A stretch of DNA of 64,000 nucleotides from Candidatus Heimdallarchaeota archaeon (GCA_020353515.1 CP070695.1:4593414-4657413), one strand, 5' to 3'. Shown: positions 2,766 through 64,000, counted from the first letter of the stretch. Made by a program: numbers and translations. Notes: generated by a model not told the origin, from the letters alone.

Positions 2766-4106
2766 TTGGTGGTATTCATGTTTGAAATGCTTTTTATTGG
2801 TTTATTTGTAGCTGGTGCCATTTATGTTGTATTCTTTTTAATCTACTCCACTATCAAGGAAGAAAAGGATTTTTCTCTTGATGTATATCGTTATCTCAGT
2901 CGACGATATAATAAAACTGTCGTAGTCGATTACGGGGGACTTTCTTCTGATCCAATCATACAATCTCGTGATGCTGGTCCATTTAAACTTATTGAAGTCA
3001 AGGTAGTAACAGAAAAAGGAGGAAAAACAACTGATCAAGATCTAATTTTACGTGGGGAAGTTGATCCTCAAAAATTTAAAAAAGGGGAGAAATCAGCCAA
3101 CCTTTCCCTCAGTCCTCAACTGCGATGGAAAAAACTTGCCCACGATATTGTTATTGGTATTCCCCGACTTGATGACCGTTTTATTATTTCCTCTGATGAT
3201 CCTTTTTTCCCTCGATTCATATTGACTACAGATCTCGGTGATCTCATCCAGAAGAGTTTTGATCTAGAGGAATATTTCATTAGATGGATGGGTGACAGTC
3301 CTATAGTTCAGGTACGAATGGAAACGATGAGTTCCAACAGTTTTATCCAAGCTTTCAATATCCTCCTTGGGACAATCGGCGCGCTTTCTGAAAAAGGCTA
3401 TCTTTCCCGGACTGGTGTCAAAAAGAAAAAGAGGGAATTTCATATTCCTTCTCCATCACATGAAGAGAAAAAACCATTATCTATTCCTTTTGAATCAGTT
3501 CAATTGCAAGTAGAGAAGAAACTAGAAATAACTAAATCAGGAGAAGAGACCTCGAAGCCAGAAACGCCTGTTATTGGCTGGGAGTCTCTTCCAGAGGATT
3601 CACTAATGCTTGAAAAACCAATTGAAAAGGAATCAATTGAAAGTCCATATAAGTCTCTTTTTACCTCTATACAATATCAAGCTAAGAAAATCGAGTACGA
3701 ACGTGATCGTGTCAGAATATTAACCTTCTCAAGAGCTTCTGAAGAAATCTTTGTCACTTTTCCACAGGAAAATAAAGCACACTTCACAACTTTGGTGGAT
3801 CGCTCTCCACCAGCAGAATTTGAGCTCCAAATTGAGTATCAGGGACAAGCGCGGCAAACAGATTGGAGTAATGCATGGAAAGACATCAAAATAGTTGGAC
3901 CTCCAGATATTATAGAAAAATTGCAAATACGAACAGGAATTGCTCACCGAATTGCAAATACTGGTGAAATAAGGGCAATAGTGAGAGGTCATCCTGATAA
4001 AAAGTTAGAATGTGAATTAACAGTTGTTAAAACAATAAGAGGTATTAATGCAGGGTATTCTCTACTAAAAGATATTATTTGGTTTTTCGAGATGATTTTC
4101 ATGTAA
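2766..4106 (+). CDS. Hypothetical protein with N-terminal membrane anchor, two globular regions and a Pro/Glu/Lys-rich linker
   Basis: 446-aa ORF with a hydrophobic N-terminus; no family recognised. Confidence 0.6.
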   Translation: MVVFMFEMLFIGLFVAGAIYVVFFLIYSTIKEEKDFSLDVYRYLSRRYNKTVVVDYGGLSSDPIIQSRDAGPFKLIEVKVVTEKGGKTTDQDLILRGEVDPQKFKKGEKSANLSLSPQLRWKKLAHDIVIGIPRLDDRFIISSDDPFFPRFILTTDLGDLIQKSFDLEEYFIRWMGDSPIVQVRMETMSSNSFIQAFNILLGTIGALSEKGYLSRTGVKKKKREFHIPSPSHEEKKPLSIPFESVQLQVEKKLEITKSGEETSKPETPVIGWESLPEDSLMLEKPIEKESIESPYKSLFTSIQYQAKKIEYERDRVRILTFSRASEEIFVTFPQENKAHFTTLVDRSPPAEFELQIEYQGQARQTDWSNAWKDIKIVGPPDIIEKLQIRTGIAHRIANTGEIRAIVRGHPDKKLECELTVVKTIRGINAGYSLLKDIIWFFEMIFM

Positions 4107-47764: not shown

Positions 47765-48517
47765 TTACAAGCTCGGAATCTTTCCCACTGGAGCGACATA
47801 TACAGTAAATTCATTTTCTCCATCAATCCCGAGTAATGTATCAACTTTATTCTGATTATAAAATCCGATTGCGCATGTTCCTGCATTTATTGCTGCACAA
47901 GCTAAGTACAAATTCTGACAAATATGACCTGCTTCTAATGCAATGAATTTGCTTGATAGAATTGAGTGTCTCCATTCCATTCGATAAGGAACTGCTACCC
48001 AACACAAAATAATTGCTCCGTTTACAGCAAAAGAGTATTGTTTATAACAAATTTTTTCCATTAAAGCTTCCATATCTTTTATATATTCTAAATAGCAAAG
48101 CTTATGACTAAGTGAAAGGTATCGGTAGAGGCCTTGTTCTAAACTTGTAACTCTATTTATGAAAAGATAAGTTTCAAACGGGTGTCTTCCCCCAGCTGAA
48201 GGAGTTGTTCGTTTGACCTGATTTTGAGTTACTTTTCTCACTCCTTGTGTACACCATAACAAAAATGATAATTCCTCAAGCGTTAAGGGATCTTTAACAT
48301 ATTTTCTATGACTCCTTCGCAATCTGATCACCTCCTTAAATGCAATATTCCCAACACTAATGTCTTCTGGAGAAATCAGATCTATTACTTTTGCCTCCTT
48401 AGGATAGTCTTTTTGTATTGGGGGTTGAGGAAGGTTCTTCTCTTGATCTGACTCAGGAAAATCCTTTGAATATCTGTCTTCATCCCATGCTTTAAGCACT
48501 TTTCTGAATTCGTTCAA
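47765..48517 (-). CDS. SagB/ThcOx-type nitroreductase-family flavoprotein
   Basis: RRSHRKY, LSFLLWCTQG, RTTPSAGGRHPFETY, EAGHICQNLYL. The likely start is TTG 48517 after AGGTGA. Confidence 0.88.
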   Translation of the reverse strand: MNEFRKVLKAWDEDRYSKDFPESDQEKNLPQPPIQKDYPKEAKVIDLISPEDISVGNIAFKEVIRLRRSHRKYVKDPLTLEELSFLLWCTQGVRKVTQNQVKRTTPSAGGRHPFETYLFINRVTSLEQGLYRYLSLSHKLCYLEYIKDMEALMEKICYKQYSFAVNGAIILCWVAVPYRMEWRHSILSSKFIALEAGHICQNLYLACAAINAGTCAIGFYNQNKVDTLLGIDGENEFTVYVAPVGKIPSL

Positions 48518-48563
48518 CTGATCACCTAAAGCTTTGGATAATTGAACTATTAGATTATTTATC

Positions 48564-49610
48564 CTAATGAGAGTATCCCTGCAGTTTTTGGGCACCCTTC
48601 TGTTCAAGTATCTTAATCTTGTTTAAGATGTCCACAACAACGAGTATTATTTGATTTCTTTCTTGATCTGATGAATCGGGTATTCTTTGTACGGTTTGGG
48701 AGATTTCTTCCCATTTCATACCTAGATTTTTGTAAAATTCACCCAAACTGTCCAAGGAAGGATAAAATTCTGCGGATTCTTCCAAAAATTGTGAATATAG
48801 GAGTCTAAACAGTCCCCCACCAGTTCCATAGTCTGAGATGAATCCTGCAATTTCATCACACCGTTCTTGGAGTTTTGGATTACTCATGATTGATAATTTT
48901 TCTAAATCTAGGACAAATTTTGTTATGGCATCAATCCCATTTGTTGTTCCGAAAATACGCATCATTCGACTTTTTTTCAAGATATTCTGACCATTCTTTT
49001 GAATAGCAATTAGGATAACATCCTTGGGATCTGGAACTTTTTCTGGAAATGAAAATTCATACATGAAATTTCGTGGATCCATCCAACGACTATATGAAGA
49101 ATTTCTCGCTCTAGCTAAATCATCTAATGAGATTTTTTGTAAATCAGGAAAATGAGTATCTGCAATTAAGACTTTAGAATTTTCAGGATTGTATCCTGCA
49201 ACCACAATCGCATGCTGTCCAAAGTGGAAACCCTTAGGTAATTGTTGATATGGTAAGTAAGCCATATCTACGTTGATTGCTGTAGGTATTCCATTCTCTA
49301 TCCGTTCTCTGAGTCGATGCCATCCCTCTTCCTTATTATTCGTCATGAATTTGTGTAATTCGATGTTCAATAGTTTACACAGATTATCTTCAAATCTATA
49401 TTGTCGTCCACCCATTATTGGATTCTCACTTCCAAGTTTTCCATACCCCAACCCCAAACCGCTGCCTAAACCAAAAATCATTGCCTCACTCATTGTTAAT
49501 CCGTGAAATTCAAAGACATCTCGAATGGCTGAGGAAGTACAATGTACACCAGGGACGTGACGAAAATTAGAGATAGGATAATTGTTTATATGTTTCGCAT
49601 TGCTAACCAT
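48564..49610 (-). CDS. BtrH_N/DUF4872 papain-like (Cys-His-Asp) protein
   Basis: HCTSSAIRD, SEAMIFGLGSGL, VDMAYLPY, FGQHAIVVAGY, IADT, GTGGGLFR. Confidence 0.82.
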   Translation of the reverse strand: MVSNAKHINNYPISNFRHVPGVHCTSSAIRDVFEFHGLTMSEAMIFGLGSGLGLGYGKLGSENPIMGGRQYRFEDNLCKLLNIELHKFMTNNKEEGWHRLRERIENGIPTAINVDMAYLPYQQLPKGFHFGQHAIVVAGYNPENSKVLIADTHFPDLQKISLDDLARARNSSYSRWMDPRNFMYEFSFPEKVPDPKDVILIAIQKNGQNILKKSRMMRIFGTTNGIDAITKFVLDLEKLSIMSNPKLQERCDEIAGFISDYGTGGGLFRLLYSQFLEESAEFYPSLDSLGEFYKNLGMKWEEISQTVQRIPDSSDQERNQIILVVVDILNKIKILEQKGAQKLQGYSH

Positions 49611-49627
49611 GATTATGAACTCCAGAG

Positions 49628-52093
49628 TTAATGGACAAGAAAGGTAGCAACTTTCGATTGTTTAATCTTTTTAATGTCTTCTGGAGATCCTGTTGCGATT
49701 ACTTCTCCTCCCTCAGGACCCCCTTGAGGACCCAATTCTATTAAATAATCTACATAAGACAATACGTCCACATCATGCTCAATTATCAATACAGTATTCC
49801 CTTGGTTAACTAATTTATCTAAGAGAGTAATCGTTTTCAGGATATCATTGTAATGAAGTCCAGTGGTAGGCTCGTCTAAAACATAGAGTGTTTTCTTCTT
49901 CCTCGCCCTTCCCAGTTCCTTAGCCAATTTAATCCTTTGAGCTTCTCCACCACTTAATGTTGTTGCAGGTTGCCCTAGCGTTATATAGCCCATCCCGATA
50001 TCGTCAAGGATGTTCAGATGGTTTATAATTTTCTCTTCATTCTTGAAGATTTCAAGGGATTCAGATACAGTTAAGTTGAGTATTTCATGGATATTCCGTT
50101 CTTTGTATTTTACTTCTAGAATTTCCAACAAATAGCCTGTTCCATCGCATTCTTCACACGGTAAATCGATTTTCGTGAAGAATGAAATCTGTAAATCAAT
50201 AAATCCACCCCCTTTACAATGAGGACACCGTCCTTTATCACTATTAAAGGAAAAATGTCCAGGACTATATTTTCGTGTTCTAGCTACCCGCTGTTTGGCA
50301 AACAACTTTCTGATATCGTCCCAAATTCCAATGTAACTAACAGGATTTGATGTTTTGGTTCTACCAATAGGGGACTGAGAGACTACAATGCAATCTGAAA
50401 CCTCTTCCCAGCCTGAAAGCTTTCCTTTAATTTCATCGATCTGGATGTATCCCTCCTCTTCCCCATTTTTCTTATTGAAATGTTCTTGTAACAAAGGTAC
50501 GAGCGTTTCACTGATTAAAGAACTCTTTCCACTTCCAGAAACACCAGCAACTCCAACCATTATTCCTAAGGGTATTTTTATTTCTATATTTTTCAAATTG
50601 TTTGTAGTTACATCCTTCAGTACAAGGAATCCTGCTGATTTTAATATCTTTCTCTTTTCTGTGGGTTTTTTTCGGGGAAGTTGAAGTTCTCCACTCATGA
50701 ACTTTCCAGTATAAGACTTTTTATTTTTCTTGATTTCCTCTAGCGATCCTTGAAAGATGATCTCCCCACCATTTATTCCCGCACCAGGCCCCAGATCAAT
50801 TATTTGATCCGCTTTTGAAATAATATTTCTATCATGTTCCACAATGATCACGGAATTTCCAAGTTCTTTTATTTCTGATAATATGGTCATTAGACTGTTC
50901 TTTTCAAGCTCATGCATCCCCATACTGGGTTCATCAAGAATGAAAATCAAGGAGTCCAATCCAGCATCCAAATGGGACATTAAACTCAGTCTTTGAAGCT
51001 CTCCACCTGATAAAGTTGTCATACTCCTATTCAAACTGAGATAGGAAAGTCCAACAAGCTTTGATTTCTCGAGACGCTTAATTATTTCATTTTTAAGCGC
51101 TTTTCCATGACTAGTTTTCACATGAGAATCCAAATCTTTCAAGAACTTGATTAATTCAGCGATGGTCATGGTTCCCAATTCTCCGATGTGTTTCTCATTA
51201 ATTAATGCCGTTCTTGCCTGCTCATTGACCTTATACCCATGACAACTGGGACAAGTTACTTTCGTCATAAAATTCTTTTCAATCTTATTCCTTCTATAAG
51301 CACTTGTGGTTTTGGCCATCGCTCTTTCAAGATGGGGGATGATTCCTTCAAATTTTGTTTCTATCAGGCCCTCAAATCTTCGAGATTTCCACTTGAATTG
51401 CATCTTCTTGTCTGTTCCATACAAAAAAATATCCTGAATCTTTTGGGGGAGTCGGTTGTATGGGGTATTGATATCAAATTCCATTACGTCAGCTAAACCT
51501 ATTGTAAAATTCTTCATGTCTCCAAAAGCAGCTGATCCACTTGCACAGATTTCTAGGAGATTTTTTGTAGGATCGGGTATCAACTTTTCCTCACGAAATT
51601 CTGCGATATAACCTCTTCCTTTACATTCTAAGCACATTCCAGAAGGTTCGTTATAACTGAAGTGCTTGATCTCAAGATTTATTGCCTTCATTCCACAAGT
51701 TGGGCATGATAGATCAATATCAACTGGTATTTGACAAATCTGACATGTTTTTATACTTTCTAAGGCAAATAGATGACGTAATAAAGTGTAGATTGTGGTT
51801 TTTGTTCCAACAGTGGATCGAGGACTAACAATACGGGCAGTTCGTTGTTCTACTGCCACGGTCGGAGACAACCCACTTAATAAATCGAATGGTTTCTCTT
51901 TCTCAACTTTGGGAGGTAGTCCTATCGATTGGAGATATCGTCTCATTCCTTCTTCAAACAGAATGTCGAAAGCGAGTGAGCTTTTCCCGGAGCCTGAAAC
52001 TCCAGTAATCGCAATGATTTGGCTTTTCGGAATATTAACATTTATGTTTTTCAAATTATGAATTCTTGCCCCAACTACTTTAATCTGATTCAT
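49628..52093 (-). CDS. Class II UvrA-like ATPase (UvrA2/DrrC type, lacks the UvrB-binding domain)
   Basis: Two ABC modules (GVSGSGKSS x2, LSGGE x2). Only ~9 aa separate CQIC and CPTC, where canonical UvrA has a ~110-aa UvrB-binding domain. Confidence 0.9.
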   Translation of the reverse strand: MNQIKVVGARIHNLKNINVNIPKSQIIAITGVSGSGKSSLAFDILFEEGMRRYLQSIGLPPKVEKEKPFDLLSGLSPTVAVEQRTARIVSPRSTVGTKTTIYTLLRHLFALESIKTCQICQIPVDIDLSCPTCGMKAINLEIKHFSYNEPSGMCLECKGRGYIAEFREEKLIPDPTKNLLEICASGSAAFGDMKNFTIGLADVMEFDINTPYNRLPQKIQDIFLYGTDKKMQFKWKSRRFEGLIETKFEGIIPHLERAMAKTTSAYRRNKIEKNFMTKVTCPSCHGYKVNEQARTALINEKHIGELGTMTIAELIKFLKDLDSHVKTSHGKALKNEIIKRLEKSKLVGLSYLSLNRSMTTLSGGELQRLSLMSHLDAGLDSLIFILDEPSMGMHELEKNSLMTILSEIKELGNSVIIVEHDRNIISKADQIIDLGPGAGINGGEIIFQGSLEEIKKNKKSYTGKFMSGELQLPRKKPTEKRKILKSAGFLVLKDVTTNNLKNIEIKIPLGIMVGVAGVSGSGKSSLISETLVPLLQEHFNKKNGEEEGYIQIDEIKGKLSGWEEVSDCIVVSQSPIGRTKTSNPVSYIGIWDDIRKLFAKQRVARTRKYSPGHFSFNSDKGRCPHCKGGGFIDLQISFFTKIDLPCEECDGTGYLLEILEVKYKERNIHEILNLTVSESLEIFKNEEKIINHLNILDDIGMGYITLGQPATTLSGGEAQRIKLAKELGRARKKKTLYVLDEPTTGLHYNDILKTITLLDKLVNQGNTVLIIEHDVDVLSYVDYLIELGPQGGPEGGEVIATGSPEDIKKIKQSKVATFLVH

Positions 52094-52105
52094 TTTTTCA
52101 CTCTC

Positions 52106-53248
52106 TCATAGTTTTATTTGCAATAATTTCCTAAATCCACTTTCTTCTAGGTTAATGATATCTTCAACGAGTTTGGCTAATCCTGTTAAATCTAGGAGTT
52201 GTAAACATTCTTCCTCGTCTTGATCCAAAACCTTCTTGATATTACTCGAAAATTCAGTCCACAACGCAGCTGATTTCGCAATTTTCTCCATTGCATCCTT
52301 CAAATAGAAGAGTTCCTCCTCCTTCCAAGCATGTATTCCCTCTCTAATGTCATGATGATTCAAAAGTTCTTTCAAATAGTTTGAATAAAGATTTCGAAAG
52401 ATAGCTCCTCCTGTTCCCATTTCCTCGATTAATCCATATACCATTTCAAGTGTAAATGCTGCCTTTGATATAGTTTCATTGGAATAAGGTGTTTTCATTG
52501 TTCCTTTCAAAATATTTGGCCAAGTTGGTATTGATTCCATAAATGATTTTAATGCAGGAATCCCATGATAGTTTGTTGATGGAGCTACGACTTGTCGGGC
52601 AACCTGTTGAAGGGGCAACTTTATTGCTCTAGCAAAGGGAGATTTTTTCCCATCTGATCTTTTAAAGATACGAACATGTTTATTATGGGGATGCAAGAGT
52701 CGCTCTCCAAATTTTGAACTGCGTGCTTTCTTGAGGTCTTCGATTGGAACCTCTTGAACATCATCAAATTCTGTATCATAGATAAAGGCTACATCTTTTA
52801 CTTCATCATATCCAGTTAGTGTAACATAATGGCCTCCAAAGTGCATTTCTTCGGGCCAATCAAAATATGATAAGAAACCCATATCAACCTGCAATCCTAA
52901 GGGAATATTTTGCGTGATCCATTTTTTAGAAACTTCCCAAGCAATATTAGCAGAAGTAAACGTTTCTATACTAATATTCAATCCCAATATACGGCACACC
53001 ATACTCTCATCAGTGACTGTTCCTTGTTTCCCTCCAATGAATAACGGAAATTCCCTACCAAACAAATCTTCTGTTTGATCACTCTGTGAATTATTGAAAA
53101 AAGTAAATCCAAATGTGCAATCTAGACCAAACACCATATTCTCAGTAATTTCAACTCCTTCATGTACAATTAGGTTTCTTAATGTTGTAGATTCACAATG
53201 GCTCCCCTTATTATGGGAAAAATTTTCAATAGTATGACTTGTATTCAT
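52106..53248 (-). CDS. Second BtrH_N/DUF4872 papain-like protein
   Basis: HCESTTLRN, ENMVFGL, VDMGFLSY, FGGHYVTLTGY, IYDT, GTGGAIFR. Confidence 0.82.
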   Translation of the reverse strand: MNTSHTIENFSHNKGSHCESTTLRNLIVHEGVEITENMVFGLDCTFGFTFFNNSQSDQTEDLFGREFPLFIGGKQGTVTDESMVCRILGLNISIETFTSANIAWEVSKKWITQNIPLGLQVDMGFLSYFDWPEEMHFGGHYVTLTGYDEVKDVAFIYDTEFDDVQEVPIEDLKKARSSKFGERLLHPHNKHVRIFKRSDGKKSPFARAIKLPLQQVARQVVAPSTNYHGIPALKSFMESIPTWPNILKGTMKTPYSNETISKAAFTLEMVYGLIEEMGTGGAIFRNLYSNYLKELLNHHDIREGIHAWKEEELFYLKDAMEKIAKSAALWTEFSSNIKKVLDQDEEECLQLLDLTGLAKLVEDIINLEESGFRKLLQIKL

Positions 53249-53251
53249 TTT

Positions 53252-53932
53252 TCATACCTCTCGAAATTTAAACTCTCCTTCATCTTCTCTAATGGATTGA
53301 ATAAACTCCTCTACCCATTGTCTTTGAGCTTTGACTATATAGTATGGCCTTTCAAATAAGGCTTTGACAACAAATTTATGTCTAGAACTTTGAAACTCTT
53401 TTGCAGTCGCACCTCCTACTATAATCTGGTTAGGGGCAGATTTTACAATTTCCTCCACATTCTCCATTTTTTCAAGTTGTAGCTCAAACCAGTAAATACC
53501 GTTGTCAAGTTCTCCCTTATATTCCTCCAAAGCAGAAAGGGCATCAGATTTAGGCAAAAGAGAAATTCCCGCTAATCCTAAATCGAATAAGGATTTTGTT
53601 CTTGGAGGACTACGCAGACAAAACTGGATTTGCTCGCAAATTTTCTGTTCCCCGATTTCAGTGATTGTGTAGATTTTTTTAGAGAGCTGTTCATCCCGTT
53701 TTTTCTCTCCTTGAATGTACTTTTTATTTTCTAATATACCTAAACTCTTATAGATTGTTGACAGTTTCATATCAACCCATTCTTCGAACCCCCTCTCATC
53801 AAGTATTTTCTTGATATGCCAAGCATGTGCTGGTCCTTCTGATAAGATTAATAACAATGCTATTTGGGTTGCTGGGATAAATTTCACTTTATTAGATTGA
53901 GTTTGGTTCTTTCTTGATTTTTGACTCTGCAT
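53252..53932 (-). CDS. PadR family transcriptional regulator
   Basis: LLILSEGPAHAWHIKK, STIYKSLGILE, KKIYTITEIG. Confidence 0.85.
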   Translation of the reverse strand: MQSQKSRKNQTQSNKVKFIPATQIALLLILSEGPAHAWHIKKILDERGFEEWVDMKLSTIYKSLGILENKKYIQGEKKRDEQLSKKIYTITEIGEQKICEQIQFCLRSPPRTKSLFDLGLAGISLLPKSDALSALEEYKGELDNGIYWFELQLEKMENVEEIVKSAPNQIIVGGATAKEFQSSRHKFVVKALFERPYYIVKAQRQWVEEFIQSIREDEGEFKFREV

Positions 53933-55703: not shown

Positions 55704-56261
55704 ATGTCCACCGATGAAATTCTATTTGAAATGCCTCATTTTTCGCAATATAAGATCGTTGTAGCTGGTGATGCGCTAGTTGGAAAGACTCAATTAGTAT
55801 CTGTATTTACTGGAAGAGATTTTGAGCACAAACCGACCGCAGGAGCTGATATTTCGTTTCTTAAATTACGGGGTAAAGGAGATAAAGGTGACCAAACAAC
55901 AACTGCTATTTTTTGGGATCTATCAGGACAACCTGCTTTTGATAAAGTACGCCCCCTCTTCTATGAGGGAGCCCATGCAGTAATCTATACTTTTGATGTA
56001 ACTAGGGAGTCTACGGTTTTATCACTTCCAAGCTGGGTGAAAGAAGTGAAAAAAAATCTACCTAATAGTCCCGCTATCTTAATTGGGAATAAAATTGATC
56101 TGAAAAAAGAACGACAAGTTAGTGATGATATAGGCCAGAAATTTGCTGATCGAATGAACGCAGCATACTTTCCGACATCTGCTACCAAGAATCAAGGCGT
56201 TGGGACAGCTTTTGCATCTGCGATTCGACGCGCTGTGTATTTCAGGGATGCAGAGGGATAA
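55704..56261 (+). CDS. Rab-like small GTPase
   Basis: GDALVGKT, PTAGAD, WDLSGQ, NKID, TSAT. Confidence 0.92.
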   Translation: MSTDEILFEMPHFSQYKIVVAGDALVGKTQLVSVFTGRDFEHKPTAGADISFLKLRGKGDKGDQTTTAIFWDLSGQPAFDKVRPLFYEGAHAVIYTFDVTRESTVLSLPSWVKEVKKNLPNSPAILIGNKIDLKKERQVSDDIGQKFADRMNAAYFPTSATKNQGVGTAFASAIRRAVYFRDAEG

Positions 56262-56282
56262 ACAGCTCCTTTCTTGAAATTA

Positions 56283-56951
56283 CTAATCAAAACCCTTTAA
56301 TAACTCCGAAACGCGTTTTTGAACATTTTCAAGTCGATTTGAGCTCAGAAGATCGATATACTGAATTATTCCATGATTATTTGAGAAAGAAATCTTCCAA
56401 TTAGAAGGATATGGATCGCTAATGATTCCTTTTTTGGCTAGATCACGAGTGAATGTGCCAACCTTCCTGATTAAGGAAGGATAAGCCTGAATGGCTTCTC
56501 CTGCTGCCTCTGTTGTCATTAATACAGGAAAAAATCGAGAAAAAGTTTCAATCTTAGCCAGTCCAACTACATTTGGTAGCTTTACTTGGATTTCTTTGTC
56601 ATTCAATTGAAATTGCATATTCTGGAACTCATAGACATAGTCCTGCCAAGTCAAATAGTGGATTATCAATGCCAATAATTCACGACTATAATAGGGTTTT
56701 ATGATAATAGACCCAATTTTGTCAAAAGGAAAGCTCCAACCAAATAGACAACTACTCCCTCCAGGATACAGAGTTGTTCCTTTCATTTGAACGCCTAGTT
56801 TTTGTGATATTCGGTTTATAGCTTCACAGCTCAAACTATTCCCTTTGGAAAAGCCAACAATACTTTCAACTAAGTCGAGGCTTTTTTGCAATGCACAAGA
56901 GGAAATCTGGTTTTTGTACTCAGGAAATAAAAAAAATGGAATGCGAGACAT
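56283..56951 (-). CDS. Atypical protein-kinase-like fold protein (putative)
   Basis: Gly loop PGGSSCLF, beta3 IIIKP, LMTTEAAG hinge, catalytic-loop-like GIISDPYPSNW, DFG-like YIDL. Confidence 0.5.
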   Translation of the reverse strand: MSRIPFFLFPEYKNQISSCALQKSLDLVESIVGFSKGNSLSCEAINRISQKLGVQMKGTTLYPGGSSCLFGWSFPFDKIGSIIIKPYYSRELLALIIHYLTWQDYVYEFQNMQFQLNDKEIQVKLPNVVGLAKIETFSRFFPVLMTTEAAGEAIQAYPSLIRKVGTFTRDLAKKGIISDPYPSNWKISFSNNHGIIQYIDLLSSNRLENVQKRVSELLKGFD

Positions 56952-56957
56952 AGGTTA

Positions 56958-58370
56958 TTAAACCCAATCTGCAGAGTCAATCTTTGTGGGCAGATAGGTA
57001 CCAGTCATAAATCGCCAGTCTTTCCCAGCTAGCGCTTGGATCTCGGCCTTTCTCCCAGTTTCAGTCATAATTTTAATCTGTTTTTCCCATTCAGGACGAG
57101 ATTTCACAAAATCTTCTTGAAGTAAATCCTCGGCTCGTTTCATGTCGTTTTCGGTCATTTTGATGAGCACAGACTTTGGAATTGAATATTCCTTGATATC
57201 GGAAGGTAATAATCCTAGCCATCGAATATCTGGAACAGCAAGTTCCACACTTTCAAAACTCAGGGCTTTACTCCCTATTGAATACACTCTCAAGATATCT
57301 AGACCATAAGGATCAGCATCTAAAAACCCCAAGATTGGAATTTGTAGCTCTTCATGAATCTTTTTGATGAACATTCTCGTGGCCATATCTGGTTGGCCAG
57401 AAGCGGTTATTAAAACGCATGGAAGATAGTTAAAGAATTTATCTTCTGCTAAATCTTGGAAAACTGCATCTTTTTCTATCACTAGGACGAATTCGGCATC
57501 ACTCTCGATATTGTCAATCTGATCTAACATCGGAGTAATAGCATGCCCTCCTAAGCCTTGAGTACAATCAATCCGATCCCCGCCTTCAGTAAAAGACATT
57601 CTACCTATGACTTTCCCTTTCGCAGAAGCGATTACGTTCAAAGAATTTCGAGATACCCGTAATAATGCTCCTAGGTCTTCAATTAATCCGTCGGATACTC
57701 GTTGATTTTCAAATAGGTTGACATCACGATAAAATAAGTGTCGCTTTGTCGCATGTTTTTCGGTATCGAGGATTTCACTTACATACCGCATTAAACCTGT
57801 CAACTGTACAACACTTTTCACACTACTGAGGTGGCGAAATTGTCTATCAACTACATGGCTTCCTAAGAGAACCATTTTAGAATTGTCATCATAACCTACA
57901 TTTTCAGAACTACGAGCTGGAATGCGAAATGCTGCTCCTTTGGGATCCTCAGCAATTTCTTCAAGAAATCTTCTTGCAACTGCCTGTAAACGTGCCCTTG
58001 TTTCCTCTGGAAGTACATTGTCTACTTTAAGAACTGATACAGGTAAGTCGATATCCTGAGACGTCATCACCTTTCGTAGTTCCTTTACTTTGGATAAATC
58101 AACTTTTCGTCGTATTTGTAATACTACCTCCTCTGACTTTGCCAATTGCCACAGTGAATCAAGATTACTCTTTTTAAGTTCTTGATAACGTTTTGTTTTC
58201 TTTGCTCCAAAAAAGATTAAAAACGGTTGTTTTGTTTTTAAACCTAGCTGGTTTTTTACAATCGTTCTAATGGCACTAAGAGAACCATCTTTTTCAATAT
58301 CAGATTTTATAACCTTATTAGTGAAGGAATAATCTTCAATAATTGTTTTAATAAATTGTTTAGACACCAT
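56958..58370 (-). CDS. top6A: DNA topoisomerase VI subunit A (Spo11 homologue) with N-terminal extension
   Basis: Winged helix TKRHLFY (catalytic Tyr), TOPRIM VIEKDAVF and DADPYG, WLGLLPSDI, KAEIQAL. Confidence 0.95.
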   Translation of the reverse strand: MVSKQFIKTIIEDYSFTNKVIKSDIEKDGSLSAIRTIVKNQLGLKTKQPFLIFFGAKKTKRYQELKKSNLDSLWQLAKSEEVVLQIRRKVDLSKVKELRKVMTSQDIDLPVSVLKVDNVLPEETRARLQAVARRFLEEIAEDPKGAAFRIPARSSENVGYDDNSKMVLLGSHVVDRQFRHLSSVKSVVQLTGLMRYVSEILDTEKHATKRHLFYRDVNLFENQRVSDGLIEDLGALLRVSRNSLNVIASAKGKVIGRMSFTEGGDRIDCTQGLGGHAITPMLDQIDNIESDAEFVLVIEKDAVFQDLAEDKFFNYLPCVLITASGQPDMATRMFIKKIHEELQIPILGFLDADPYGLDILRVYSIGSKALSFESVELAVPDIRWLGLLPSDIKEYSIPKSVLIKMTENDMKRAEDLLQEDFVKSRPEWEKQIKIMTETGRKAEIQALAGKDWRFMTGTYLPTKIDSADWV

Positions 58371-58379
58371 TAATCCATC

Positions 58380-61300
58380 CTATTCTTTTGTCATATAAGC
58401 GTCCAGTCGTCCAACAACATCTGCTTTTCTTCTAAGTCGGACATTAGCTTTTATCTGTTTGATTTTTGCTGCTGATAAACCATAAACTTGCTTTAGATCA
58501 CCATCAGGCCAATAAAGGAAATCAATTATCCGGTTTATCCCCTTTTTAACTAATTCTTGAGCAACAGGAATAGGTAAATCTGCTAATCTAACGATTGGAC
58601 TTTCTAAATCATGAATACAAGCTTTTATTAATTTAGATGGGACGTAATCATCAGGAATGAAGTTATATCTCTTAAGATGAAAGTAGAGATCCTCTATATT
58701 GTCAATCCCCATTTCGTGAAAAGTAGCAATATGTTCTTCAGGAATCCTTACGAAGTTTTCAATTGGGGTTCCTAGACTCTTTTTCCGCTTTAAAGCACCA
58801 AGGTTGACTTTTCGATATTTCGATAATTCATATCTCTTTATTTCAAGTAATTCCGCTAAGTCATCTTTAGGCCAGAATAAGAACTCAATTGTTGAAGTTA
58901 TCCCTGCATTATACAATAAGGGGATCTTCTGGGGAAAGCTATCTTGTACGGTTGGTAAAATTGCAACAGGTTTCTCTAACACCCGTTTTACGGTTTCAAC
59001 TGGTTTTACAAGTGACTTGGTTAATCTTTCTGTATCTAAACGGAAGTATAGATCTACAACATTATCGACCCCCAGACTCGTAATTTGTTCTAATTGTTTA
59101 GGAGAAAATGCTCTGAGTGAGGATAATTTGACCCTAAATTCGGTATCAGTTTTTTTATGGGTTATTATATCTACTAGATTTATTGAATTCCTCGCTGAAT
59201 TGTATTCTTCCTCATCTATGATTCCCATAGGATCTTCTAGTTGAGAAAATTCAGTTTTTATTAGTTGAGTTACCGAAGTTACTCCGTTGAACGCTAATGG
59301 AGTAACATATTGCGGAGGGAGTAAGCTATAATAAGCTAAAGATGAGTTAAGGGCATCTTTAAGGTTTGCTAAACGGGATTTTAATTGATCAGAGACAGAA
59401 ATTGTTCCTAAGTCTATAAATAGAAGATCTTCCAGAACCCTAATCCCATGTTTCTCAATTTCTGTAAAATCTATGTACCCTGACTCAATGAAAGTTGGAA
59501 GAGGAGTATCGGCCTCGGTTATTTCACCAGCAGCCTCAAAGTCGAACTCTGTTTTTAGAGAAGCTATCTCAGATATATCCATACCTATAAGTTTGGTTAA
59601 AGCACCATTGGGAGTGAATAACCAATCGGAGATTGTTGAAACACCACTTTGTGACAGTTTTCGCAAATCATTTAAAGGTAACTCCTCAGATAACCGATTT
59701 ATTGGACTATCAAGAATTTCATATAGCTTTTCCAATTCCTTCTGCTTAAAATCCTCTCTATCACGTAAGATAAATTCCTGGATTGAAGTAATATTCTTCT
59801 TATCCAATTCAGAAATGATTTTAGTAGGAATAATTCCTGAAAAATTATCTAGTGGAATTATCTCATCCTCTAAGTGTTTAATAACTTCAGGCATCTTGAT
59901 TCCGGTTACCAATGCCCTAGTCTTAGGTGAGGTAGATCCTATCTTTTCAGCAAGTTCTCTAATACTCTCGTCGAAAATGTCTCCAATATGATTTATGGAA
60001 TGTTCTTTGAAAATAGATAACCATTCTAAGGTTATTTTAGGAATAAAACATATGGGAATGTTTAAGAATTGTTCTATTTCATTGAAATTTAGTGTTTCCA
60101 ATTCAGCAAAGAATTCAGAGGGATCAGTTCCTAATATTGTCTCAATCCGTTCTGTAGAAGTTGAATAGGCATCTTGTAAGGTCTCAATACGTTTTTGTTT
60201 TAGATTTTTAACCTCTTCTCGGTCTGATCCAAAAACTAAACTCAACGGGATAGTCAAAATTGAAAATATTCGAGTCCATCTCTCTCTGTCTATCCGTATT
60301 GTTTTATCTCCTTCTTTTGCAAGATAGATGTCCTCCTTGGGGCTAGTTAAAAGCTCAAAAACGGTTTTTATTTCCTCACGTTGTAATGCGGCGAGATAGT
60401 CTGAAGGAAAATTGAGTTTCTCTATTGTCAATCGTTTTAGAAAAGTTATAACTGCAGTAATATTAATTGAATCCTGAATGGCTTTAATTCTTGCTGCTTG
60501 TATTTGTGTACGATTTTCAAGTTCCTCCTGAGACTCTATCATCAGATCTAAAACCGTTCTGACTTTTGCTTTTTGGAAATTCTTTATTTCTTCTTTTGTA
60601 GGTATAGGACTTATTTCGATTGGTAGGTCTAGAATGGTTTTTGCATCAAGTATTATTTGCCAATCAATATCACTATCAACAAAGGTTTTCGGAGTTGCCA
60701 CATAATATAAATCAGCTAGACTCTCTATACCCAAACGAGTAAGTTTTCGAATAGTGTTTCTATCGAAAAGTGAAACTTTAGTAAGAGGAATCATCTTCTC
60801 CTCTTTCATTGATTTAATATTATTGAAGTTAAGGTCTTTCTTCATCGCAACCACTTGTTTTAAGTCCATCTCAAGTGTATTGATAATTTGGTCCTCAGGC
60901 GTAGTTAAGAAGTCGTAAATTGTAGATATTTGCTCATCAGCGAGTATTTGAAGCTGCTTCCGAGGCAATCCTTCCAGAATTGAAACAGATGTTTCTGTTG
61001 ACTCACGAAGCTGGACAAGATTAATTTTCTTTCTTAAATTAGCAACATTTTCTGGGGGTGTCTCCAAGATCTCGGAAAGTTCTTCCTCAGAGGTTATTAG
61101 GAAACGAATTATGGTGTCAATCCGTTTTTTAACCAAATTATCGATATATTTAGCTGCAATAATACCAGTAAGGTAAGTCACGGGAAGTTCTAAAGCTTCC
61201 ATGGCTTTTTCAACATAACTCCAATCTATTTCGTCATCTTCATCTAACATGTCTTCAGAAGCGGTAAAGTAGAGATCCTCAACCGTTTCAATACCATAAC

Positions 61301-64000
61301 CTAATAATGTTGAAATTGTCTTACGATTGTATCCACACACTGCTTCCAAAGGCATTCCGTGTTCTTTAATTGCTACTGATTGCTTTAATTCGTCAATACG
61401 AGGTAAAGACATTTTAAGAATTGATTTTAAATCATTAGGTGACCAATAAATAAGCTTTATTATCTGATCAATTCCATTACTTGCTAATCGTTCGAGACCA
61501 TCATGTGAAATTCGGATTGCAGTTTTATCTGAACTACTCCGAAGCTGTAACATTGCCACGGGTGTTTCAAGGATACGTTGAAACCTTTCAATTTTTTTCC
61601 ACTTAACACCCATTACTCCAAATGTGTCCTTTCGTGCACAGAAATACACACTTTCCACTGTGGAGAAGCCTTTAGAAATTAAGGATTTCATTTCAGTAGC
61701 GGAAATGACTCCAAGGTCAATCAGAGGCATGCCAGAGAGGAAGAGATCGAAACTTGACAGCATGGTATTAACAAAATTCTCATCACGACCGATTAATTCT
61801 TCAATTTCTGTTTTTGACCAAGTAACTAAATCAATAAAGGAATTGATGTTATTAGCATGAAGTCTAGCAATCCATATCGGTTTTATTTGAGGAATTCTCG
61901 AGATTGGAGTTAAAAAGAGTGTATTTAATTGCTCTATTTCACGTTTAGATAATTCTAATTGTTTTATTTTGCCATTAGAATATGGAAGTTGATAGTAAAG
62001 CTCTTGAACACTAAATTCTGTCTGGAGTAATTTCTGCCAAGCTTTTCCCTCTAAATTATTTGCCAATATAGATACAGGAAGAACTTTAGAGTCAATGAGA
62101 GATTTAATTTCTTCGATGGAAATTTTACTTTTTGTTCGTTCAATTAGTTTATAGGACATACCTGTTTTACGATGCAAGTCAGTATCAGGCCATAGTAGAA
62201 AATCAATAATTCTTGAGACTCCCATATGATGAAGGGTATGATAGTATTTACTTGGTATAGGAAGATAACAAATAGGAGAGTTTAAAAGATTGAGTAATTC
62301 TTCTATTCGATTTTGGAATGTCTTAGGTTTTAATTCAAACTCGGTTGCTGCTGCTTGTAATTCTTCCAGACAGAGAATATTATTTGTTTCCAATTTTTCA
62401 CGCTCTTCTGGAGTCAATAGGGGAACTGGTGTACCATACGTTCTCTTAATTGTTTCCAGAATTTGAGGATCCAATTCTTCTAGTTTCATCAAAGTCGAGG
62501 AAGGGCATCGAATAAAATCATAGACAGTTTCTATGCCAAGACCCTTTAACTTAGTTTCTAATCCTGAGTCTAACCACCAAGCAGCTTTTGTTGGGAATAT
62601 TTCATGTTCCTGTTCTATTTGTTCTTGAATCTCATCCTGTTTCATAGAAATCAGACGAGATATTAAACCACGAATGATCTGAAGCTCTCTTTCCTCCATC
62701 AGGAGAAAGTCTATGAAACCCTTAATCTCGAGACGTTCCAAATCTGGCTGCATAGTTTCATCTAGAGCATCTACTTTTTGGAAAGGTTTTTCCTCATTTA
62801 ATTGAGTAATTTCTTCACTTTGGACTTTTTTTGAACGGAGAATAAGTTTTTCTGTGAGCTCGGAGATATCTGCCAACTTTTCAGTTGGTGTTTGAAGAAA
62901 TTCCTTTATTTTCGAAATATTTCGTCCCCTTAAACGTGGTGTTACACGATAGTCCATCCAATCGAATGTTGCAGCGCCTATGACCTTGTCTGCATCTATA
63001 TATCCCTGTTTTATTCCTTCTTGGATTTCTTTCTTTATCATTTCAAGAATTTTAATTGATAAATTGGGAACTATAGCTAATTTTTCTGGGAATGCTATCA
63101 TGTAATCTAGGATATTGAGAATCTTTGCTGATTTCAATCCTTTTTTGATGTCTTCAGTTATCCAAGGCATTGTTTCAAAATCAAATGCTGTTACAGGATA
63201 ATCCGTTAGAATTTCATTAATAGCTCTCTGCTTTGCTTCATAAATTAGCTTTTCAGGGAAATTCTCAACCATACGAAGTTGGGATATCGGTGTGGCAAAA
63301 AAGTCAAGGGAAGATACTATCCAACGCTTATTTAGCGCTTTATGTATTCTTAAAGCTTGACGGTATTTACTATAATCATCTTCTATCCCTTTTGGAAATA
63401 TTTCGAACTCACGCATTGTAGGCGCTTTATTTGATCTTTCCTGACTATTAACTGTTGCACGTTTAATTTCGACTATTTTTTCTTCTGTTAATCCAGTAAT
63501 GTTACTCAATTCTGCTATTGGGGCTCGTAAAAATTGATATATTGTTTGGATATTGTGTTCAACAAGGGTTACATAAGTCGAAGTGGGTAACCATTCCCCA
63601 ATGCTTGAAATTAAAGGACTTGGAGGAAAAGTGCGACGAACTAAACGTGGTACTGCAGATGCTAATGCTTTTTCGAGCTTTGCCATCTCTTCAGTGGATT
63701 GCAGTAGGAAAGGAGTTTCAGTTACATCTAATATTTTCGATAAGTTCCTAAGAACTTTTGGGGCCGCACTTTCAAATCTGGACTGCCTTTGTTTCTCCCT
63801 ACGCTCTCGTTCAGCTCGTCCTAGATGTTGACTTAAACCACGGGCTAATTTTTTCAGAACTTTCATTATTTCTTTTCGAAGTTCATCAACATCAGCAATG
63901 TACTCTTTACTCGTCTCTGGAAAAGGAATCTTTGAGGAAACCAATGAAACGACAATAGCAATAGGTGATTTATTGATCTTGATCTTATAATTCTTCCAAG
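58380..64000 (-). CDS. top6B: DNA topoisomerase VI subunit B (5' part outside the window) fused to a giant repeat array
   Basis: The frame is open to the window edge: WKNYKI...PIAIVVSLVSSKIPFPETSKEYIADVDELRKEI...LARGLSQHL is the Top6B transducer. It ends 9 bp before top6A. Confidence 0.85.
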   Translation of the reverse strand, partial: WKNYKIKINKSPIAIVVSLVSSKIPFPETSKEYIADVDELRKEIMKVLKKLARGLSQHLGRAERERREKQRQSRFESAAPKVLRNLSKILDVTETPFLLQSTEEMAKLEKALASAVPRLVRRTFPPSPLISSIGEWLPTSTYVTLVEHNIQTIYQFLRAPIAELSNITGLTEEKIVEIKRATVNSQERSNKAPTMREFEIFPKGIEDDYSKYRQALRIHKALNKRWIVSSLDFFATPISQLRMVENFPEKLIYEAKQRAINEILTDYPVTAFDFETMPWITEDIKKGLKSAKILNILDYMIAFPEKLAIVPNLSIKILEMIKKEIQEGIKQGYIDADKVIGAATFDWMDYRVTPRLRGRNISKIKEFLQTPTEKLADISELTEKLILRSKKVQSEEITQLNEEKPFQKVDALDETMQPDLERLEIKGFIDFLLMEERELQIIRGLISRLISMKQDEIQEQIEQEHEIFPTKAAWWLDSGLETKLKGLGIETVYDFIRCPSSTLMKLEELDPQILETIKRTYGTPVPLLTPEEREKLETNNILCLEELQAAATEFELKPKTFQNRIEELLNLLNSPICYLPIPSKYYHTLHHMGVSRIIDFLLWPDTDLHRKTGMSYKLIERTKSKISIEEIKSLIDSKVLPVSILANNLEGKAWQKLLQTEFSVQELYYQLPYSNGKIKQLELSKREIEQLNTLFLTPISRIPQIKPIWIARLHANNINSFIDLVTWSKTEIEELIGRDENFVNTMLSSFDLFLSGMPLIDLGVISATEMKSLISKGFSTVESVYFCARKDTFGVMGVKWKKIERFQRILETPVAMLQLRSSSDKTAIRISHDGLERLASNGIDQIIKLIYWSPNDLKSILKMSLPRIDELKQSVAIKEHGMPLEAVCGYNRKTISTLLGYGIETVEDLYFTASEDMLDEDDEIDWSYVEKAMEALELPVTYLTGIIAAKYIDNLVKKRIDTIIRFLITSEEELSEILETPPENVANLRKKINLVQLRESTETSVSILEGLPRKQLQILADEQISTIYDFLTTPEDQIINTLEMDLKQVVAMKKDLNFNNIKSMKEEKMIPLTKVSLFDRNTIRKLTRLGIESLADLYYVATPKTFVDSDIDWQIILDAKTILDLPIEISPIPTKEEIKNFQKAKVRTVLDLMIESQEELENRTQIQAARIKAIQDSINITAVITFLKRLTIEKLNFPSDYLAALQREEIKTVFELLTSPKEDIYLAKEGDKTIRIDRERWTRIFSILTIPLSLVFGSDREEVKNLKQKRIETLQDAYSTSTERIETILGTDPSEFFAELETLNFNEIEQFLNIPICFIPKITLEWLSIFKEHSINHIGDIFDESIRELAEKIGSTSPKTRALVTGIKMPEVIKHLEDEIIPLDNFSGIIPTKIISELDKKNITSIQEFILRDREDFKQKELEKLYEILDSPINRLSEELPLNDLRKLSQSGVSTISDWLFTPNGALTKLIGMDISEIASLKTEFDFEAAGEITEADTPLPTFIESGYIDFTEIEKHGIRVLEDLLFIDLGTISVSDQLKSRLANLKDALNSSLAYYSLLPPQYVTPLAFNGVTSVTQLIKTEFSQLEDPMGIIDEEEYNSARNSINLVDIITHKKTDTEFRVKLSSLRAFSPKQLEQITSLGVDNVVDLYFRLDTERLTKSLVKPVETVKRVLEKPVAILPTVQDSFPQKIPLLYNAGITSTIEFLFWPKDDLAELLEIKRYELSKYRKVNLGALKRKKSLGTPIENFVRIPEEHIATFHEMGIDNIEDLYFHLKRYNFIPDDYVPSKLIKACIHDLESPIVRLADLPIPVAQELVKKGINRIIDFLYWPDGDLKQVYGLSAAKIKQIKANVRLRRKADVVGRLDAYMTKE
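58400..63620 (-). repeat. Protein-level tandem array of ~28 degenerate ~55-70-aa alphaCTD/HhH-like units
   Basis: Recurrent P(I/V)xxL..h....xxLxxxGIx(T/S)hxD(F/L)h....L....Gh....IxxhK; no DNA-level identity between units. Confidence 0.85.

Follow-up and report, generated by a model that had tools for sequence, protein, structure and literature searches.

A giant topoisomerase VI B subunit with an arm of 28 HhH-type units beside the gyrase genes of a Hodarchaeum genome

The top6B locus and its enzyme core

The DNA analysed here, referred to as the window, is a stretch of 64,000 nucleotides from a Candidatus Heimdallarchaeota archaeon (CP070695.1:4593414-4657413). The host genome is represented by one 4.94-Mb contig and belongs to Hodarchaeum, the same genus as Ca. 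Hodarchaeum mangrovi. At the right edge of the window lies the gene for the B subunit of DNA topoisomerase VI (Topo VI), read on the minus strand in a frame that is open from the edge to a stop codon at 58380. In the genome sequence, this gene runs past the edge to window-equivalent 65315 and encodes a product of 2,311 aa, four times the usual Top6B length. [quoted passage not shown] The resulting order, gyrB-gyrA-top6B-top6A, is conserved in Hodarchaeales. The features discussed below are as follows.

58380..64000, minus strand: top6B, in-window part (aa 440-2311 of 2,311); the whole gene is genome 4651793-4658728
63636..63998, minus strand: transducer end and stalk of Top6B (aa 440-560), with WKxY, switch lysine, basic stalk and Top6A-binding helices
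58419..63617, minus strand: arm of 28 predicted RAD51-NTD/alpha-CTD-fold units (aa 567-2299), in which long units are often paired with short ones
63189..63617, minus strand: units 1-2 (aa 567-709), with a basic-aromatic motif conserved in unit 2
58419..58604, minus strand: terminal unit 28, with the highest conservation in the genus (75%) and the most basic (+5.4)
58392..58418, minus strand: candidate PCNA-box-like C-terminal peptide (aa 2300-2308, L-D-x-Y-M, no Gln)
56958..58370, minus strand: top6A, 470 aa (Pfam PF04406 and PF21180; motif check)
58101..58370, minus strand: ubiquitin-fold (beta-grasp) domain of Top6A, about aa 1-90, no di-Gly
56283..56951, minus strand: ORF of 222 aa without a Pfam family, 6 bp downstream of top6A

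The 222-aa ORF is syntenic across the genus (42-83% identity) and was not seen at the loci of other families. Another cluster of co-oriented ORFs occupies window 47765-53932 (minus strand). A promoter and terminator scan, made with a bacterial model on this archaeal DNA, returned hits at chance level. Some gyrase genes of Heimdallarchaeia are long and give split matches, consistent with inteins (L069:3839-7477, plus strand; several gyrA frames of 1,270-1,730 aa).

The first 560 aa of the giant protein constitute a complete Top6B. The N-strap, GHKL ATPase and H2TH region are encoded outside the window, between its edge and window-equivalent 65315, and the first residue within it is W440. Pfam places both GHKL (aa 42-173; HATPase_c at aa 44-139, with boxes N, G1 and G2 intact at aa 45, 100 and 130) and the transducer (PF09239, aa 350-510, E 3.6e-51) in the same ORF; WKxY is found at aa 440 and the switch-lysine KIPF motif at aa 461-465, and the motif check found these and the ATP-binding boxes all intact. 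The NCBIfam Top6B model gives 434 bits, its cut-off being 274. Top6B of S. shibatae aligns in one continuous stretch, aa 11-529, which includes the H2TH region, this region being assigned from the 2zbk_B alignment and not from an H2TH profile. A first-pass annotation, made from the window alone, had read the frame as open to the right edge, 9 bp from top6A, and as starting in the transducer and stalk of a Top6B, and had called for GHKL and H2TH to be sought upstream; the ORF reading, the motifs and basic stalk in their places, and both domains in the same ORF bear this out. The giant gene is the sole top6B of the host genome. Its product is Top6B by every sequence test, and ATP-dependent relaxation and decatenation as an A2B2 tetramer are predicted. 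Assignment to the TOPOVIBL or meiotic Spo11-partner type was ruled out, since the H2TH region and every GHKL box are retained.

In the partner subunit Top6A, the 5Y-CAP tyrosine (Y214 by motif) and the Toprim motifs are intact, and the length of 470 aa is accounted for by the N-terminal ubiquitin-fold domain. The profile of this N-terminus matches ubiquitin, and among family members Pfam gives ubiquitin at E 2.6e-7 and Rad60-SLD at 6.4e-8. The modelled N-terminus has beta-grasp topology with Foldseek matches to PB1/UBL domains (prob 1.0); all matches in the Atlas feature search stayed under 0.9. Prediction of a complex between this domain and aa 504-903 of Top6B scored 0.00, which is no evidence either way. 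A 744-aa Top6A elsewhere (L086:7366-9600, plus strand) has a long N-terminal extension that opens with a PIP-like peptide and is not matched by the ubiquitin-fold profile.

Fold, conservation and charge of the arm

The first-pass annotation had counted about 28 units of the alphaCTD/RadA-Rad51 N-terminal HhH fold after the stalk, and both the count and the fold stood up. Mapping over 12 orthologues gave 28 units at a spacing of 50-75 aa, a count that is partly circular for this genus because the profile was built from these very units (column-shuffled controls, 0-1); an HMM seeded on the giant Top6B itself found 23 units and none in 200 shuffles. Pfam RAD51D_N, which is independent of the purpose-built models, matched above its cut-off over the whole Top6B (summed E 2e-26), with weaker matches on the arm to HHH_5, alpha-CTD and NusA repeats (TIGR01954 weak). 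Profile comparison shows homology between the two ends of the arm (98.7%). An AlphaFold2 model of the last seven units, 22-28, is a packed helical array (pLDDT 86, pTM 0.76) in which long units alternate with short ones missing one hairpin helix; the fold of units 1-21 is assigned by sequence alone. The closest structural neighbours of this model are RAD51-family N-terminal domains at middling VIA Z-scores of 6.3-7.1, led by an N-terminal domain from a complex of RAD51 paralogues (Z 7.1; 64 residues aligned at rmsd 4.7), followed by DisA, NusA, SAM and alpha-CTD domains. Modelling thus indicates that the arm unit is a RAD51-NTD/alpha-CTD HhH-type bundle of four or five helices and about 55-65 aa. 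Foldseek with the seven-unit model gave no match at E<=0.001, and Atlas searches by structure and by feature yielded weak HhH/NusA/alpha-CTD leads alone. The supra-domain arrangement found no clear match in the structure searches, and a new fold is not thereby shown.

The closest relative of an arm unit within the genome is a 432-aa protein (L173:5126-6424, minus strand; genome about 2181125-2182423), in which a beta-rich domain at the N-terminus is combined with four HhH-type units of canonical form with intact GIG hairpins (HHH_5 E 1.6e-26).

Mis-assembly, or a lost stop codon fusing Top6B to a neighbouring repeat protein, might be suspected in a single metagenome-derived contig with a contamination estimate of 7% and a full-length product known from DNA only. 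At the DNA level this explanation is refuted and its probability is negligible. In the probable source run, two Logan contigs agree with the window over 56000-63100 and 63079-64000 with zero differences and cover the stalk-arm junction, and more than 30 independent orthologues, including those on two complete Heimdallarchaeum chromosomes, show the same fusion. Moreover, the units are about 19% identical to each other and no near-identical DNA repeats were found, so that collapse or expansion of the arm during assembly is implausible. In a search of sequencing runs, no run of RNA was among those listed as holding the sequence.

Among orthologues of the genus, dN/dS is 0.05-0.15 in the arm versus 0.02-0.04 in the core, indicating from the coding sequence that the arm is under purifying selection. 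Unit number and order are fixed within the genus, and units 1-2 are orthologous in all giant-arm families. The internal units 11-14 are 68-74% conserved, on a par with the tip.

The net charge of the arm, taken from its sequence, is -46. Only units 8, 11, 25, 26 and 28 are clearly basic, and units 5, 13 and 23 are conserved and strongly acidic. One GhG hairpin occurs in the 1,751 aa of this arm, and 0-2 per 1,700-3,700 aa in giant arms generally; by this test the giant arm is not a canonical array of the Topo V type. The short tail of the sister lineage has 5 GhG per 550 aa, with canonical hairpins (HHH_5 E 8e-28). The tails of some other giant-arm lineages are net basic overall.

Unit 28 keeps a hairpin with the Rad51-type second glycine, which resembles the DNA-binding hairpin of RAD51. 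The last 60 aa are net basic in all 40 C-terminally complete representatives, and the make-up of the tip varies by lineage: a Rad51-like unit here, lysine-rich, histone-H1-like tails in several families, and in one a SAP domain (E 4e-7, above the Pfam cut-off, in a fragment directly upstream of its top6A). Within the same 60 aa, Q-[TKGVI]-[TS]-L is found in 18 representatives (shuffle mean 0.4, max 3) and the full PIP box QxxLxx[FY], with the consensus as in PMC7776575, in 4 (shuffle mean 0.2), these patterns having been picked after inspection of the data and the 40 including non-independent kin. About half of the representatives, mostly from lysine-rich-tail lineages, have no PIP-type motif. 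The host genome encodes PCNA, the gene lying at genome position 4069465, and PIP-type ends are found there on Nre, Fen1, NucS, PolB and an HhH-GPD glycosylase; in two of these proteins the canonical Gln is missing. At the same time, a loose motif like the end peptide of this Top6B terminates 31 of the 3,375 ORFs of the genome. PIP-like ends are also carried by two DNA methyltransferases and by a radical-SAM/HhH plus DUF4130 pair (L176:277-1041, minus strand; L181:250-1359, plus strand; L178:246-2027, plus strand), which are candidate PCNA partners by sequence.

Distribution and evolution

A survey of Top6B length across Asgard genomes, proposed in the first-pass annotation, revealed orthologues of 2,300-4,300 aa in Heimdallarchaeia and Borrarchaeum. 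Those of the host genus have 2,310-2,340 aa throughout, and those of other Heimdallarchaeia families about 2,350-2,970, 3,400-3,900 and 4,140-4,340 aa. Ca. Heimdallarchaeum aukensis and endolithica, both with complete chromosomes, have Top6Bs of 4,172 and 4,292 aa in which no fewer than 43 units can be detected. A Top6B of 2,290 aa is present in Borrarchaeum besides a normal pair, and its arm is colinear with the one described here over 1,790 aa; this giant pair is possibly a transfer from Heimdallarchaeia. At one Borrarchaeum locus (L084:5362-19606, minus strand), the giant and the normal-length top6B/top6A pairs lie within 15 kb. In the JABLTI01 family, which we take to be Gerdarchaeales, Top6B has 1,110 aa with a tail of 7 units and is accompanied by a second, normal Topo VI.

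In the core tree, which was rooted at the midpoint and contains Asgard sequences only, the tailed Top6Bs are monophyletic (100/99), with the short form branching as the sister of the giants as a whole (99/97). By this sequence comparison, the short 7-unit tail with canonical hairpins is probably the ancestral state. No lineage that had lost the arm was seen among the tailed Top6Bs surveyed. In a profile search of 1.8 billion representatives, all strong long matches that retain the N-terminus were Top6B fusions. The ubiquitin-fold profile of Top6A matches in 70 of 400 Asgard genomes. These are exactly the genomes of the giant-arm families, Borrarchaeum among them, and none of the 12 short-tail genomes has a match; the Top6As with this domain form one clade (100/99).

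An Asgard-wide arm was considered and rejected: the Top6Bs of other families, 950-1,280 aa in size, owe their length to insertions inside the core (L074:7217-10681, minus strand; L075:5867-9283, plus strand; L080:7227-10874, minus strand; L085:3852-7640, plus strand). They are a second, independent elaboration of Topo VI, and the C-terminus of some is a short helical domain, possibly of a winged-helix-like kind. Two single-contig genomes, each about 70% complete, carry a giant top6B cut at about 1,250-1,430 aa (L066:9101-12844; L067:7628-11584 / L068:6888-9356), the remainder of one lying 1.7 Mb away beside top6A; these cuts are probably scaffolding errors.

Gyrase is encoded by 68 of 70 giant-arm Heimdallarchaeia versus 0 of 12 short-tail ones. 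However, it was not found in Borrarchaeum (0 of 5 genomes, two of them 100% complete) despite the giant arm. The link between Top6B extensions and gyrase proposed in PMC9348778 is therefore at most partial for the arm. A strict coupling of arm and gyrase was likewise rejected, as Borrarchaeum has the arm without gyrase and the converse holds for other Asgard families.

Possible roles of the arm and comparison with known systems

In archaea, Topo VI serves as the main decatenase, and the meiotic complex of Spo11 and TOPOVIBL descends from it. The Heimdall group is often placed closest to eukaryotes, and the relation to the origin of Spo11/TOPOVIBL drawn in the first-pass annotation is background to this Hodarchaeum host. 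The reading of the arm that we prefer, at a confidence somewhat short of even, is a long tether of Topo VI to DNA or to the sliding clamp through its tip. The core would perform ordinary ATP-driven strand passage. The arm has a single origin, probably in a short tail whose roughly 7 units had canonical DNA-binding hairpins; its later 4- to 8-fold expansion in a sub-clade was accompanied by the decay of most hairpins and the gain of the ubiquitin-fold domain by Top6A. In the preferred reading the tail would at first have contributed to DNA-binding processivity and later have become a tether. It would now act mainly as a long, partly rigid spacer whose far end anchors the enzyme, to DNA via the basic tip (units 25-26 and 28 in this protein, in other lineages the lysine-rich tails or the SAP domain) and to the PCNA clamp via the PIP-like peptide. 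The two arms per heterotetramer could hold Topo VI near replicated DNA, leading to a higher local concentration and decatenation processivity, and in most hosts labour may be divided between Topo VI and gyrase.

Such a tether is consistent with the intact, single-copy core and low dN/dS along the arm, with the loss of GhG hairpins in the giants and a net charge of -46 in which the basic charge is gathered at the end, and with a net basic end in 40 of 40 representatives, be it of SAP or lysine-rich type in other lineages. The Q-x-x-L core in 18 and the full PIP box in 4 of these, like the PIP-type ends on Nre, Fen1, NucS, the glycosylase and PolB, point to the clamp. The single clade of tailed Top6Bs with a short canonical tail sister to the giants, the packed array modelled for the last 7 units, the gene order conserved in Hodarchaeales and the gyrase distribution also fit. 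Against it, the end peptide of this very protein lacks the Gln, a motif of its form closes 31 of the 3,375 ORFs of the genome, the PIP patterns are post hoc, drawn from related sequences and missing from about half of the representatives, and the fixed order and number of units, together with the conservation of units 11-14, exceed the needs of a passive spacer. Gyrase cannot be required, given the Borrarchaeum arm, and the tails of some lineages are net basic overall.

The first-pass annotation had proposed a DNA-wrapping or scaffolding tail. DNA wrapping on the model of Topo V is weakened by the 0-2 GhG per giant tail, the acidic net charge and the small number of clearly basic units. In the form of a processivity arm, with many units touching DNA loosely so as to encircle or track the G- or T-segment and shape the selection of crossings, it is unlikely. 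In its favour, the structural neighbours include RAD51, alpha-CTD and DisA, members of the same fold class that bind DNA; hairpins of the canonical kind are present in the short sister tail, and some giant tails are net basic. The tandem domains of Topo V surround DNA with few direct contacts (PMC9489208), so that weak motifs are compatible with wrapping. The conserved, strongly acidic units 5, 13 and 23 argue against it, as does the match of Topo V to the arm model at TM about 0.1 and E 0.35-0.4 only. A rather unlikely alternative would have the units serve as docking sites, whether for gyrase, for proteins of the replisome or chromatin or for the ubiquitin-fold domain of Top6A, or polymerise the enzyme into a chromosome-organising assembly, in the manner of SAM domains or the acidic repeats of NusA. 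SAM domains and the C-terminal repeats of NusA are indeed neighbours (Z 5-6, besides the weak TIGR01954 match), every unit is individually conserved in fixed order, units 11-14 highly so, the ubiquitin/PB1-like domain of Top6A is confined to the giant-arm families (70 of 400 genomes, one clade), and in the passages of PMC9665070 searched the post-stalk region of Top6B docks accessory factors in plants and animals. These Z-scores, however, are middling and tied with those of DNA-binding fold members, and the invariably basic, DNA-binding-type tips are left unexplained by scaffolding alone. Largely neutral expansion of a once-useful short HhH tail, kept because it must fold, could account for the spread of lengths from 2,300 to 4,300 aa between families and for the decayed hairpins; it is very improbable in view of the dN/dS of 0.05-0.15, the genus-wide fixed unit number, the 1,790-aa colinearity with Borrarchaeum, the absence of any arm-loss lineage among those surveyed and the cost of 5-11 kb of extra coding sequence.

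A more far-reaching version, unlikely as a whole and to be taken as speculative, would make Topo VI a targeted chromosome machine in Heimdallarchaeia, with two arms tens of nanometres long, tips (H1-like, SAP, Rad51-like) on clamp and chromatin, and internal units and the Top6A ubiquitin-fold handle recruiting partners. If true, these archaea would have fused into the enzyme itself the kind of targeting for which TOP6B/TOPOVIBL in eukaryotes depend on separate accessory factors.

Whatever the role of the arm, a whole Asgard class relies on a Top6B of 1,100-4,300 aa, usually as the sole copy, against 530 and 621 aa in the solved B subunits. Surveys that trim alignments to the Top6B core would miss the arm, and databases label the giant proteins simply Top6B. 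An Asgard replisome study (PMC12680538), in its main-text passages searched, treats Top6A/B as vertically inherited by eukaryotes and makes no mention of the arm. No published description of the arm, of a Top6A with a ubiquitin-like domain or of an Asgard Topo VI with HhH was found in the portions of the literature searched; the giant-arm architecture of this essential enzyme is real, conserved and apparently undescribed. Descent of the eukaryotic enzyme from the tailed clade would imply that the arm had been lost or that separate accessory proteins had taken its place. The natural series of no tail, 7 canonical units, 28 units and more than 40, with interchangeable DNA-binding tips, makes the targeting of type IIB enzymes in the cell, and their work-sharing with gyrase, testable.

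With canonical archaeal Top6Bs (S. shibatae 2zbk_B, 530 aa; M. mazei 2q2e_B, 621 aa), the giant protein shares an alignable GHKL domain, H2TH region, transducer, WKxY and stalk (E 7.6e-82 and 4.9e-63) and the adjacent top6A. The canonical proteins have nothing or an Ig-like CTD of about 100 aa after the stalk, whereas the giant one has an arm of 1,750 aa with 28 HhH-type units, and its Top6A carries the extra ubiquitin-fold domain. The unit fold is that of the RAD51/RadA N-terminal domain, the RNA polymerase alpha-CTD and the NusA acidic repeats (Pfam RAD51D_N, HHH_5, RNA_pol_A_CTD), which occur in one to a few copies. Topo V of Methanopyrus kandleri (type IC, 12 tandem (HhH)2 domains; PMC9489208) is similar in that a topoisomerase domain is followed by a long tandem HhH-type array; it is, however, an unrelated enzyme, the arrays have no significant structural match (TM about 0.1), and the Top6B hairpins are degenerate and the array acidic. 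Known Top6B extensions, as described in the passages searched of PMC9348778, PMC11302465 and PMC9665070, are single small domains. Those of gyrase-containing archaea (Villain et al. 2022, PMC9348778, in the same passages) resemble the arm in following the transducer, in the gyrase-encoding Asgard host and in clustering with gyrBA; in contrast to the arm, each is a single globular domain and not a repeat array, and the arm also occurs without gyrase in Borrarchaeum, as does the short tail in its hosts. Plant TOP6B with RHL1/BIN4 and metazoan TOPOVIBL with REC114 (PMC9665070, passages searched) likewise use the post-stalk region as a site for targeting or DNA-binding accessories, through short CTDs that bind separate proteins, unlike the fused giant arm; the likeness considered is one of place.
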